Below are positions 59,679-64,000 of a stretch of DNA of 64,000 nucleotides, one piece after another (positions within the stretch are counted from its first letter, which is position 1; the number at the start of each line of letters is the position of its first letter). The notes beneath the pieces were generated by a model. It did not search any database and had not been told where the DNA came from. It saw only the letters and a list, made by a program, of their open reading frames with translations. A program made the translations under genes and the position numbers. Where the stretch lies: positions 34,811 through 98,810 of IMG/VR virus record IMGVR_UViG_3300027749_000065; one strand, 5' to 3'. This DNA comes from a virus.

Positions 59679-59715
59679 GGTAGAAGTGATAATACGTTTC
59701 TACCCATTTTTTTTT
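59679..59715 (+). terminator. Intrinsic terminator
   Basis: GGTAGAAGTG-ataata-CGTTTCTACC followed by a T9 run. Confidence 0.65.
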
Positions 59716-59743
59716 CTCATATTTTTTGTCTATATTTGTTCTT

Positions 59744-60685
59744 ATGACCGAACAATTAGTAGATTATTCACCAGTGATTGATATTCTCGAAGACATTTTC
59801 GGAGATTATAAATTACATAATGATTATAAAGGACAAATATCTTTTGATTGTCATGTGTGTTCCCATGAAATTAAAGGTTTGGATGATGGTGATGGAAAAG
59901 GTAATCTGGAAATCAATTATAAAGAAGAAGTCTTTAAGTGTTGGTCATGTTCGGAAACACATGGTACACATGGTACACTATATAAATTAATTAAAAAATA
60001 CGGTAATAAAAAACAACTTGGTAAGTTTCAATTACTAAAACCTGAAAGTAACGAGGACTCCCCAAAGAGAGAATATAAACCTGTTAGATTACCAAAAGAT
60101 TTTATTAGATTTAAAGATGTAAGTGCGGGGTTTAAAATGACTCCATATTTCAAACAAGCATGGAATTATCTTAAAAAAAGAAATATAACCAATGAAATGA
60201 TTGAAAAATATGATATTGGTTTTTGTTATCTTGGTGAATATGGTGGTAGAATAATTATTCCATCATATGATGAAAATAACATGGTAAATTATTTTATTGG
60301 TAGATCATATCAAAATAACCCAAAATTAAAATATAAAAATCCAGAAGCACAAAAAGAAGTTATAATATGGAATGAAGACCATATAAATTGGGATGAAACC
60401 GTTTATATAGTTGAAGGGGTTTTTGATAGTATATTTTTACCTAATTCAATTCCAATGCTAGGTAAAGTTTTACACGAAAAGTTATTCAAAAAACTTTATG
60501 ATTTTGCAAAAAAAATTGTGATAGTGTTGGATGGAGATGCTTGGGATAATGCTGAAAAATTATACCATAAAATAAATTGCGGTAAATTAATGGGTAAAGT
60601 ATGGATTGTAAAATTACCTATTGATAAAGATATTGCAGATTTAAAAGGTGATCTTAGTGATTACAAAGTTAAACAATTAGATTAA
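59744..60685 (+). CDS. DNA primase (zinc-binding domain plus TOPRIM)
   Basis: CHVC...CWSC, YLKKR, IVEGVFD, LDGDA, KDIAD. ATG 59744 is preferred because TATATTTG lies at 59731-59738. Confidence 0.88.
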   Translation: MTEQLVDYSPVIDILEDIFGDYKLHNDYKGQISFDCHVCSHEIKGLDDGDGKGNLEINYKEEVFKCWSCSETHGTHGTLYKLIKKYGNKKQLGKFQLLKPESNEDSPKREYKPVRLPKDFIRFKDVSAGFKMTPYFKQAWNYLKKRNITNEMIEKYDIGFCYLGEYGGRIIIPSYDENNMVNYFIGRSYQNNPKLKYKNPEAQKEVIIWNEDHINWDETVYIVEGVFDSIFLPNSIPMLGKVLHEKLFKKLYDFAKKIVIVLDGDAWDNAEKLYHKINCGKLMGKVWIVKLPIDKDIADLKGDLSDYKVKQLD

Positions 60686-61542
60686 TGGATTTAAAAGAAG
60701 TTTCAAAAGAAATAAAAGAATTATTAGAAAAAAGAAGACAAGAAATAGAATTAACCTTTATTGAAGATGAACATATCTATTTCATGAAAGATATTAATGG
60801 TGTTATTAGAAATGATTTTCCTTCCGTATCTAAGGTAATAAAATGTTTCCATGAACATTTTGATACTGAGGGTAAATCACTTGCCATGGCAAAAGGTGAT
60901 TTATATGAACAATCAAGATTATTGGCAGAATGGAAATCGGCTGGAGATTATTCAACGAATATGGGTAGTATGGTTCATTATGAATTAGAAAAAGATACAA
61001 TATCTCGTAATGGTGATTATAAAGAAGTAAGACAACCTATTTTTGAGTGTGATGAGTCACAAATAAGTAAAGGAGATTCAATGATTATCGCTGGTAAGAA
61101 ATTCCTCCATTTAATGGAGGAAAGAGGTGCGGTTTTACTTGATACTGAAATAGTATTGGGTGATCCTGAATTAGAATATACTGGTCAACCCGATAAAATG
61201 TGGTTGATAATGAATAAAGAAAAAAATGGATTCGGGTTTGTTACTACAGATTGGAAAACCAATAAAAAAAAGAATTTTATTGCTCAACCATATACAAAAA
61301 AAATGTACCCACCATTTAACTCATATGACAATACCGCATTAAGTCATTATTATATACAGTTACCATTATATGCGAAACTCCTGTTGAAGATGTTAAAAGG
61401 TACAAAATATGATAACTTAAAATTATTTGGATGTATTGTTGTATTGTTGAAAGATGATGCAACATTCGAAGAATATAGAGTACCTATGGACATAATAAAC
61501 ACAGTATTAACAATGGATGTAAAAAAATATTTAAACAAATGA
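60685..61542 (+). CDS. PD-(D/E)xK exonuclease
   Basis: PSVS, GSMVH, E..L...GQPD...DWKT...QL.LY motifs. Confidence 0.8.
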   Translation: MDLKEVSKEIKELLEKRRQEIELTFIEDEHIYFMKDINGVIRNDFPSVSKVIKCFHEHFDTEGKSLAMAKGDLYEQSRLLAEWKSAGDYSTNMGSMVHYELEKDTISRNGDYKEVRQPIFECDESQISKGDSMIIAGKKFLHLMEERGAVLLDTEIVLGDPELEYTGQPDKMWLIMNKEKNGFGFVTTDWKTNKKKNFIAQPYTKKMYPPFNSYDNTALSHYYIQLPLYAKLLLKMLKGTKYDNLKLFGCIVVLLKDDATFEEYRVPMDIINTVLTMDVKKYLNK

Positions 61543-62204
61543 TAAAAAAAATCGTACACATTAGCGACCTTCATGTTCGCACATTCTTATTACATGAACA
61601 TTATCACAAACAATTAAATGAATTTTTATTTGGTTTAAGACCAAAATTAAAAGGTTTTGAATATGACGAAATAAGGATAGTTTTAACTGGTGATGTGGTA
61701 CACCAAAAGATTAATATTTCCAACGAACAAGTTGTATTAGTTACTTGGTTCTTTAATGAGTTAAGTAAAATTGGTAAACTTATTATCATACCTGGTAATC
61801 ATGATTTCTTGGAAAATAACATGAATAGATTGGATACCATAACTCCAATTGTAGAAACATTAAATAACCCTAATATAACCTATTATAGAGATGGTGGAAT
61901 GTATTCTGACGATAATGTTAATTGGGTGGTTTATTCGTTATTTCAACACAATAATAGACCTGAATTTGAGTTAGAAGAAGGGAAACTACATGTTGGGTTA
62001 TTTCATGGACCAATTCAAGGATTTACTACCGATACTGGTTATATTTTCGATGAAACTGCATATGATAAATTAAACTTTGTCGGGTGTGATATTGTTTTAT
62101 GTGGGGATATACATAAGAGAGATATAAAATATTTAGAAAGAGAAATTGAAATAGATGAAAAAGATATTGATGAATATTTAAAAAAAGGTTGGAAAAGAAT
62201 ATAA
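61539..62204 (+). CDS. SbcD/Mre11/gp47-like metallophosphoesterase, N-terminal fragment
   Basis: HISDLH, TGD, GNHD, FHG, GDIH motifs; ends before the GS motif. Confidence 0.85.
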   Translation: MIKKIVHISDLHVRTFLLHEHYHKQLNEFLFGLRPKLKGFEYDEIRIVLTGDVVHQKINISNEQVVLVTWFFNELSKIGKLIIIPGNHDFLENNMNRLDTITPIVETLNNPNITYYRDGGMYSDDNVNWVVYSLFQHNNRPEFELEEGKLHVGLFHGPIQGFTTDTGYIFDETAYDKLNFVGCDIVLCGDIHKRDIKYLEREIEIDEKDIDEYLKKGWKRI

Positions 62205-62252
62205 CACTAAAATTTTGTTGAATTCGCTATATTTATAATAAACAACAAAAAT

Positions 62253-63167
62253 ATGGAGAAACAATGCATACAATGTAAAAAAAATTATCAACCAAAAAAT
62301 AAAACTCAAAAATTCTGTTCAGTTGAATGTCAATATAATTCATATAAAATTCAAAAAATAGAAAAAATAAAAAAAGAATGTATTAAATGTGGTAAAATTT
62401 ATTATAAAATCCCTAGTAAATCTGGTTCAACATATTGTTCTAGAGAATGTAAAGATTTACATCAAAAAGAAATTTACCTTAAAGAAGGTAATCCTATTTG
62501 GGGTAGAAAATACACAATAATTGAAAAAAAAATTAAATCAGACACAATTAAAGAATTGTGGAAATCTGAAGAATTTAGAGAATCCGTTAAAAACGGACAA
62601 GAAATTTTTTTAAAAAAAAATGGTTATTGGTTTGGTACTGATGATGTAAGTAAAGAAAAAAGAAAAAAAACTTTAATTAATCGGTATGGTATTGAACATA
62701 ATTGGTGCGGAAAATATGGTGAAAGAATTTGTGATAAAACAACCTTTGAAAAATATGGAAAGACATCTGTAGATATGTTAATTGAATATACAAGACATTA
62801 CAATAAAAAAACAGATATTGAAAATATTTTTGAAGAATTTTTAAAAGATTTAAAAATACCATTTCAAGATAAATTTAAAATTTATAATAAAGATAAAATT
62901 GATTTTTGGTATAAAGAGTATGATTTTTTAATTCTAAATACTAATATTTTAATTGAGGTAGATGGTGATTATTGGCATGGTAATGAAAAAATTTTCCAAG
63001 ACTTAACTGATTTTCAAAAATCAGTTAAAATTAATGATAAAATAAAAGAAAATTTCGCGACTTCTAATGGTTATGAAATTATAAGATTTTGGGGTTCAGA
63101 CATTAAAAAAAATAAAACTGAAATAAAAGAAAAATTAAAAGAATTATGGGAAAAATTAAATTATTAA
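62253..63167 (+). CDS. Free-standing Vsr/DUF559-like homing endonuclease interrupting the gp47-like gene
   Basis: CxxC...[FY]CSxEC repeats, YDF...IEVDGDYWH...IRFW. Confidence 0.82.
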   Translation: MEKQCIQCKKNYQPKNKTQKFCSVECQYNSYKIQKIEKIKKECIKCGKIYYKIPSKSGSTYCSRECKDLHQKEIYLKEGNPIWGRKYTIIEKKIKSDTIKELWKSEEFRESVKNGQEIFLKKNGYWFGTDDVSKEKRKKTLINRYGIEHNWCGKYGERICDKTTFEKYGKTSVDMLIEYTRHYNKKTDIENIFEEFLKDLKIPFQDKFKIYNKDKIDFWYKEYDFLILNTNILIEVDGDYWHGNEKIFQDLTDFQKSVKINDKIKENFATSNGYEIIRFWGSDIKKNKTEIKEKLKELWEKLNY

Positions 63168-63373
63168 AAAAAATACCTATTATCCAAATTGGTTCATTCA
63201 TACAGCAGAATTTTGGGGAAACAGTCAACCATCATGGTTATGGATTATATGATGTTGAAAGTAATGAATATACATTTCATGATGTTATAAATGAAAGTCC
63301 TTACTTACATTTTAAAATAAATGACATAAAAGATATAGAAAATGGAGAAGAAATATTACTTAACCTTGGATAA
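63146..63373 (+). CDS. SbcD/gp47-like nuclease, C-terminal fragment
   Basis: IGSFIQQNFGE...HGYGLYD is the GS...FGE..G motif that follows GxxH in this family. Confidence 0.8.
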   Translation: MGKIKLLKKIPIIQIGSFIQQNFGETVNHHGYGLYDVESNEYTFHDVINESPYLHFKINDIKDIENGEEILLNLG

Positions 63374-63587
63374 TGAATTTATTCAATATTGTAAATTAAA
63401 TAATATTGAAGATGTTGAAGGTAAAGCAAATGAAATATTTAAACAAGGTTTTACGATATTGAAATATGGTGTAACACCAAATATTCCAATACAAAAAAAA
63501 CCTGAACCACCACCAACTAAGATGATAAGAGAAGGTGAGAAACCAGTGGTAATAGTAACACCAAAAAAAGATCTTTATGGTGAATAA
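63342..63587 (+). CDS. Small hypothetical protein (possibly RHH-like) ending KKDLYGE
   Basis: 81 aa; short N-terminal strand, then helices and a Pro-rich linker. Confidence 0.55.
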   Translation: MEKKYYLTLDNEFIQYCKLNNIEDVEGKANEIFKQGFTILKYGVTPNIPIQKKPEPPPTKMIREGEKPVVIVTPKKDLYGE

Positions 63588-63685
63588 TTTGGTATAATAA
63601 AAATTTTTAATTATAATTGTAAAAAAAAGTATGAAAGATTTATGTTGTACATAAAATACAATAACATATATTTATAATAAAAAAA

Positions 63686-64000
63686 ATGAATAAATATTGT
63701 ATTAAATGCGAAACAAATAAAGATATTAATGATTTTGGTAATAATAAAAATAATAAAGATAAACATAATCTTTATTGTAAATTATGTGAAAAAAATAGAG
63801 CGAAAGAATATCGTTTAAATAACCCTGATAAACAAAAAGAAAGTAGTGAAAAATGGAGAAAAAAAAATCCGGAAAAACAAAAAGTATTTTATAAAAAATA
63901 TATAGAAAAAAAACCGGAAATGCATATTACTCAAAGAATTAAAAAATACAGAGAAAGTGAAGTTTATAGAGAAAATGAAAAAAAAAGTAGGAAAGAATAT
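63686..64000 (+). CDS. Putative homing endonuclease, N-terminal part (runs off the window)
   Basis: Manual translation: MNKYCIKCETNKDINDF...YCKLCEK followed by a Lys/Arg/Glu helical region; TATTTAT at 63669. Confidence 0.6.
   Translation, partial: MNKYCIKCETNKDINDFGNNKNNKDKHNLYCKLCEKNRAKEYRLNNPDKQKESSEKWRKKNPEKQKVFYKKYIEKKPEMHITQRIKKYRESEVYRENEKKSRKEY

Follow-up and report, generated by a model that had tools for sequence, protein, structure and literature searches.

A few cases are known in which a gene broken by a selfish endonuclease is rescued at the protein level and not by splicing. One of them, the nrdA gene of phage Aeh1, is split by mobE, and oppositely charged tails that come from the insertion are essential for the activity of the NrdA enzyme (Crona et al., 2010, NAR 39:1381, PMC3045599). 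Crona et al. also predicted further cases (PMC3045599). Another description concerns one Lake Gatun locus, where a Vsr-like endonuclease gene interrupts an SbcD-like gene and no intein is present (Dassa et al., 2009, PMC2677866). The upstream open reading frame (ORF) of that locus has 25 additional C-terminal residues and the downstream ORF nine additional N-terminal ones, all absent from intact SbcD-like proteins (PMC2677866). Here we describe a fractured sbcD gene of a lake phage at positions 61539–63373 of a window of 64,000 nucleotides (nt), the last 64 kb of the 98.8-kb IMG/VR viral contig IMGVR_UViG_3300027749_000065 (~30% complete by estimate, ~26% G+C). Neither the SbcD-like fracture with extra peptides, reported in 2009, nor the idea of such tails, shown for another enzyme in 2010, is new. 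What we add to the earlier locus (PMC2677866) is an uninterrupted relative with 91% amino acid identity, the exact borders of the insertion, a large set of alleles, statistics on conservation and charge, and predicted folds. An earlier interpretation of the window from its letters alone (the sequence-only reading) had proposed that charge-complementary peptides rejoin the two halves of the nuclease, and had named Aeh1 nrdA/mobE as the precedent for a split gene independent of splicing; the published work supports that precedent (PMC3045599).

The interrupted gene and its insert lie on the plus strand. The N fragment of the nuclease (221 amino acids, 61539–62204) carries phosphoesterase motifs I–V up to GDIHKR (residues 1–194) and continues into a 27-amino acid acidic tail (D195–I221, net charge −2) with the motif EIDExD..YLxxGW and a TAA stop (tail and stop, 62121–62204). 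A spacer of 48 nt with a weak hairpin (62205–62252), the only non-coding stretch between the sbcD halves, precedes the ORF of a free-standing homing endonuclease (304 amino acids, 62253–63167) with zinc-finger repeats, a NUMOD3-like motif and a C-terminal DUF559/Vsr-like nuclease domain. The C fragment (75 amino acids, 63146–63373) shares 22 nt with the 3′ end of the endonuclease gene and begins with MGKIKLLKK, part of a basic head of 14 residues (M1–Q14, five lysines; 63146–63187). It then supplies the last core strand (IGSFIQQNFGE) and part of the capping domain, and it reaches the native C-terminus. The ORF list reproduces the arrangement 61539–62204, 62253–63167 and 63146–63373 that the sequence-only reading had described, as well as its tail with eight acidic residues in 13.

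Relatives of the gene in IMG/VR (80 loci returned, 79 of them complete) define what the insertion interrupted. All 79 complete relatives encode the nuclease as one uninterrupted, stand-alone ORF of 255–271 amino acids with a C-terminus of the type ...ENG.E..LNLG. Because these proteins end where the 75-amino acid ORF ends, the C fragment is complete and not truncated. The closest relative (L008), the 91% identical one, is uninterrupted, and its blastn homology to the window is limited to 59707–62116 (85.6%) and 63188–63484 (87.5%). The intervening 1071 nt (62117–63187) form a cassette that replaces 43 nt of L008 coding for the native β-hairpin between GDIHKR and IGS. Based on these borders, both the tail (D195–I221) and the head, residues 1–14 of the C fragment, belong to the insert and not to the host gene. 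The break falls at the tip of the hairpin that joins GDxH to GS; in SbcD/Mre11, these two motifs are separated by only a short loop. Both cores are under purifying selection: against L008, the ratio of nonsynonymous to synonymous substitutions (dN/dS) is 0.08 in the N core and 0.13 in the C core. With a host gene that is continuous in near relatives and a free-standing endonuclease ORF in the insert, the locus is an intein-less fractured gene.

Several lines of evidence identify the host protein as a nuclease of the SbcD/Mre11 type. The N fragment matches the Pfam Metallophos family (E 1e-10, residues 4–193) and an SbcD-like PHROG (E 2e-11). It contains all of motifs I–V (DxH, GD, GNHD, H, GDxH), and residues D10, H12, G51, D52, N87, H88, H156, D190 and H192 are invariant or nearly so. 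Its AlphaFold model has a mean predicted local distance difference test (pLDDT) of 89.9 and the predicted fold of an Mre11/SbcD nuclease domain: the best Foldseek match is the SbcD protein of S. aureus (7dog, E 7e-7), and the other leading matches are Mre11 (3tho, 4nzv) and SbcD of E. coli (4lty). A phmmer search of the PDB with L008 gave no match; the family profile matches SbcC (6s6v_C, E 8.5e-45), Rad50 and Mre11/SbcD (3qg5_C, E 5e-16). Many relatives are single fused SbcD-SbcC chains of ~1050 amino acids, and it is the fused chain that matches 6s6v_C. In the clade of the window, the nuclease is a separate protein. One relative (L091) has an SbcC-like gene downstream, and the window itself ends at 64000.

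The same cassette layout was found at six loci with full context: the window, L111, L088, L103, L097 and L002. The cassette sits in stand-alone sbcD genes in L111, L088/L090 and L103, and in fused SbcD-SbcC genes in L097 and LR756508.1 (L002). In each of the five further loci the motif E(I/V)DExD..YLxxGW marks the tail, with a stop 3–5 residues after it (nine in L002), and all five encode endonucleases with a homologous zinc-finger N-terminal region (window versus L002, E 1e-9). The restart codon overlaps the end of the endonuclease gene by 17–28 nt in five loci and is directly adjacent to it in L002. Endonuclease identity does not track host-gene identity: the window and L111 share 61% of endonuclease and 52% of core residues, whereas the window and L088 share 36 and 63%, respectively. 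In a tree of 168 nuclease cores, computed with the insert left out of the alignment, the 18 split rows need at least 15 state changes, 11 of them forced by well-supported branches, and the window groups with the uninterrupted L008 with 100% support. The cassette is thus spread across lineages, a distribution suggesting that the tail and head peptides travel with the endonuclease and have reached 11 or more SbcD lineages. This pattern probably arose as the cassette repeatedly homed into alleles that were intact and exchanged domains. Two nuclease domains occupy the same sbcD site. A DUF559/Vsr-like domain is present in the window (62253–63167) and L111 (L111:2501–3421), and a TnsA-like N domain (E 6e-6 to 1e-4) in L088:4726–5580, L097:4642–5541 and L002:3671–4588. 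The zinc-finger N-terminal region is common to both kinds, which suggests a modular swap of nuclease domains within one cassette family.

The endonuclease of the window contains CxxC...CSxxC zinc-finger repeats and an NP.WG NUMOD3-like motif, and it matches a PHROG of HNH/homing endonucleases (E 7e-14). The label Vsr-like comes from a DUF559 match (E 1.7e-4; 21.8 bits, barely above the Pfam cut-off of 20.6) and the motif EVDGDYWHG. PDB sequence searches with this protein, phmmer included, returned nothing significant. The orthologue in L111 matches DUF559 with E 1.7e-6 and Vsr with E 0.038. A related-loci search with the window endonuclease alone found no relatives. More distant endonuclease relatives (L107, L109, L110 and L114) are not located in SbcD genes, and most of them have other phage genes on either side. 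The spacer in front of the endonuclease gene folds into a hairpin of −7.2 kcal/mol (z −2.3), and that of L088 (L088:4682–4725) has a 12-bp stem (z −3.4); both are similar to the control hairpins that fractured genes are reported to have in front of their endonucleases. Promoter and terminator scans gave nothing above chance, and the frames on either side of the stop and restart showed no remnant of a linker.

The tail and head are conserved in each of the split alleles examined. Among the best 150 matches from an exhaustive search of 1.8 billion cluster representatives are ~12 short N fragments that carry the tail. All 19 split N fragments that were aligned have G217 and W218, which are thus as invariant as the catalytic residues. 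In six loci and ~17 clusters that are only 31–66% identical, both fragments retain open frames and every motif. The heads of the window, L111 and L088 are 80–93% identical, while their nuclease cores are 50–63% identical; four of five heads are of the type MGK.IK..KK.P and that of L002 is more divergent. Of 17 tails, 16 have a net charge of −2 to −10, and five of six heads have one of +4 to +6 (+4 over the 15 residues scored for the window), compared with a mean of +0.2 for 90 native hairpins. Charge-complementary peptides, as the sequence-only reading had proposed, are therefore a conserved feature of the split alleles examined. The dN/dS ratios of the tails (0.30–0.38) and the heads (0.06–0.41, a figure complicated by the overlap with the endonuclease frame) point to purifying selection on both. 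A word-indexed search on the tail region found three proteins only.

The proposal that the two peptides occur only in split alleles needs revision. They are absent from the 79 close relatives and from ~140 of the 150 representatives, but four or five distant, intact homologues carry a similar insert contiguously, so the observation that would speak against a split-specific device was made in part. These proteins (P0133, P0088, P0026, P0008 and perhaps P0093) are uninterrupted and have 40–50 extra residues at the same site, arranged as a strand, an acidic helix, a G-aromatic pair, a short strand, a linker, a K-rich strand and P. The HMMER alignment of the window N fragment spans the tail in four of the five (not P0008), and a hidden Markov model (HMM) of the tail alone finds P0026 (E 0.015) and P0088 (E 0.064) in the right place. 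Homology of the contiguous inserts with the tail and head is likely, if weakly supported. The residue that follows the glycine is F, Y or A in the contiguous inserts and never the W of the split alleles. Contiguous-insert rows are scattered on the tree (five changes, four forced), which fits scars of endonuclease-gene loss or transfer of the insert alone; alternatively, the contiguous insert could be ancestral. A related-loci search with P0133 found no relatives.

Structure prediction suggests how the tail and head could fit together. In the AlphaFold model of P0133, where the insert is contiguous (62-row alignment, mean pLDDT 87.7), the GDIH motif at 187–190 is followed by a strand (193–196), the strand corresponding to the tail (199–206), a helix (207–215) and a short strand (219–221). 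A loop with the lowest pLDDT (222–229, ~73) marks the position of the break, and beyond it come the head strand (230–237) and a strand leading to the GS motif (239–242). When the N fragment was modeled alone, the tail helix (207–215) was predicted with confidence (pLDDT 87–88), but segment 191–200 had a pLDDT of 60 and the tail strands did not form. Their absence agrees with a dependence of the tail on the head strand as a partner. Because contiguous inserts exist and that of P0133 is predicted to be ordered, the tail and head look more like the two parts of a single mini-domain than like a clasp confined to split genes.

These results are consistent with the following scenario. In a stand-alone phage gene for a nuclease of the SbcD/Mre11 type, a site-specific mobile cassette has taken the place of the native hairpin that links GDxH and GS. 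It consists of the tail codons and stop, the spacer, the gene for a zinc-finger/Vsr-like homing endonuclease, and the restart and head codons. The endonuclease may cut alleles that lack the cassette close to the codons of the hairpin, on whose two sides lie the conserved codons for GDIHKRQ and GSLIQQNFGE, and repair would then copy the cassette from a cassette-bearing genome; we infer cleavage of the uninterrupted allele because split alleles are scattered on the tree. With a stop and a restart in the cassette, the gene would be expressed as two polypeptides. The N fragment would end at the TAA at 62202, the endonuclease would be translated from 62253, perhaps damped by the weak spacer hairpin, and the C fragment would be made by coupled translation from the ATG at 63146. 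The N fragment has all of the metal-binding motifs and the C fragment the last core strand and the cap, and the two chains would reassemble with splicing of neither RNA nor protein. A small fold extending the native hairpin would be formed from two halves, the acidic tail with its strand, helix, GW and short strand, and the K-rich strand of the basic head. Both may be needed in assembly, for which their conservation and the purifying selection give indirect support.

Taken as a whole, the reading that a mobile cassette splits sbcD, that the halves reassemble without splicing, and that the tail and head help hold the fragments is probably correct. Some observations weigh against it. The tails of Aeh1 NrdA act in the dimerization of heterodimers and not in heterodimer formation (PMC3045599), and because they are unneeded for the heterodimer, a clasp may be the wrong picture here as well. 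The pairing of tail and head strands is deduced from the order of secondary-structure elements in the models. Furthermore, the tail-only HMM does not detect P0133 or P0008, the homology between insert and tail being weak, the tail of P0145 is basic, and the head of L002 is nearly neutral. The tail and head could also be passive passengers that were co-converted with the endonuclease, with the large native interface between core and cap holding the halves and the extra peptides no more than tolerated. Homing routinely copies donor flanks, the tail-less fragments of Aeh1 NrdA still form the heterodimer (PMC3045599), and the dN/dS of the tails is looser than that of the cores. Such passengers would not be expected to retain GW in all 19 split alleles across the tree while contiguous inserts have GF, GY or GA, or to conserve their charge pattern in an insert that is predicted to be ordered, and we regard this explanation as unlikely.

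Other explanations would dispense with two working polypeptides. Selfish insertions can inactivate genes, and an interrupted sbcD could be a decaying pseudogene whose nuclease is no longer used. This is very unlikely given the intact frames and motifs in the six loci and ~17 clusters and the low dN/dS of both cores against L008. Removal of the insert by RNA splicing, as a group I intron with an endonuclease ORF, has a parallel in the Vsr-like endonucleases also found in recA group I introns (PMC2677866), but we give it very little credence. Rfam returned no RNA family at E ≤ 1 in 61400–64000, the non-coding part amounts to just 48 nt, it is the protein sequence of the tail and head that is conserved, with synonymous changes in the codons, and the stop and restart are conserved. 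Scarcely credible, too, is a degenerate split intein, in which the tail and head would join the halves by trans-splicing, even if the same endonuclease type sits between split-intein halves in other fractured phage genes (PMC2677866). The residue after GDIHKR is D, Q, A or S (D195 in the window) and does not follow the required Cys/Ser/Thr pattern, the head ends in ...IPIIQ before IGS without HN and a nucleophile, 27 plus 14 amino acids are far below the length of a HINT fold, and no intein family in Pfam was matched. On both counts, the absence of an intron and of an intein signature, the sequence-only reading was borne out. Ribosomal bypass was also considered and is ruled out by the distance of 940 nt.

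Beyond the preferred reading of a mobile cassette whose tail and head help hold the fragments, we tentatively raise a broader possibility. The tail, endonuclease and head may together be a self-contained mobile element with its own reassembly module, which has entered at least 11 SbcD lineages, stand-alone and SbcC-fused. Its nuclease domain would have been exchanged (Vsr-like versus TnsA-like) while site and module were kept, and the module might persist as an in-frame mini-domain after endonuclease loss. If true, proteins would owe some of their new inserts to homing endonucleases.

Upstream of the sbcD region are a primase gene (59726–60685) and, between it and the N fragment, a gene for a PD-(D/E)XK-type exonuclease (60685–61542). 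In a lake-water metatranscriptome, 44% of the sampled words of 61539–63373 are present, a word match and not evidence of expression. Downstream, a conserved ORF of 81 amino acids (63342–63587; motif ..EF.QYC.LNNI.D...F.QGF...KYG) starts before sbcD ends. ORFs resembling it come after sbcD in L088, L091, L095, L103 and L111, and the window copy had no match in Pfam or PHROG. We also identified a second endonuclease-like ORF with CxxC motifs (63686–64000) that runs off the contig end and matches PHROG families of endonuclease VII (E 5e-8) and HNH (E 4.5e-4). DNA homology to L008 ends at 63642, so this ORF looks like another free-standing mobile endonuclease. L111 has, between its sbcD C fragment and the small conserved ORF, an ORF of 295 amino acids (L111:3694–4581) where other relatives have no such gene; its start (..IGNTPLYKLN..) looks cysteine-synthase-like. 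In L095:5250–7619, an SbcC-like gene is apparently broken within Walker A, one ORF ending past ...NQGGKC... and the next containing ...VSHNTSF.... This looks like a split intein in a Rad50/SbcC ATPase.

The window locus is a well-delimited addition to the short list of genes rescued from an endonuclease at the protein level. Gene halves of this kind are easily mis-annotated as truncated genes or pseudogenes, and their short peptides could act as natural split-protein tags. The locus opens three questions: what residues a natural two-piece association module is made of, whether such a module moves together with the endonuclease, and whether it outlasts the endonuclease as an insert. Of the described systems, the SbcD-like locus of Dassa et al. 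(2009) shares with it the two ORFs, the Vsr-like endonuclease between them, the 3′ overlap with the downstream ORF and a freshwater phage source. It is a single locus, likened here by description, and its extra residues were given no role. Fractured genes with split inteins (gp41, NrdA, NrdJ, IMPDH and DnaE; PMC2677866) have the same layout, the same endonuclease families, upstream hairpins and charge-complementary interface strands, but their halves are ligated by trans-splicing, whereas the window peptides lack the defining intein residues. I-Bth0305I and its EDxHD family (PMC3239194) likewise combine a Vsr-related catalytic domain with a separate DNA-binding region and occur in phage DNA-repair genes. 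However, I-Bth0305I is intron-encoded in recA, the putative membership of the window enzyme is based on a DUF559 match and a motif, and sister cassettes have a TnsA-like nuclease domain in its place.

The arrangement of nrdA-a, then mobE, then nrdA-b in Aeh1 also resembles the window in that a free-standing endonuclease splits an enzyme, in Aeh1 an essential one, between two β-strands and its gene overlaps the downstream one. The host enzyme is a different one, the endonuclease is of the HNH family, and the polarity is reversed, the upstream tail being basic in Aeh1 and acidic in the window. Aeh1 is a single instance with a proven function, whereas the sbcD tails are a conserved family for which we infer a function. 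Because this family extends across many alleles, the sbcD case offers a better system than the single Aeh1 instance.

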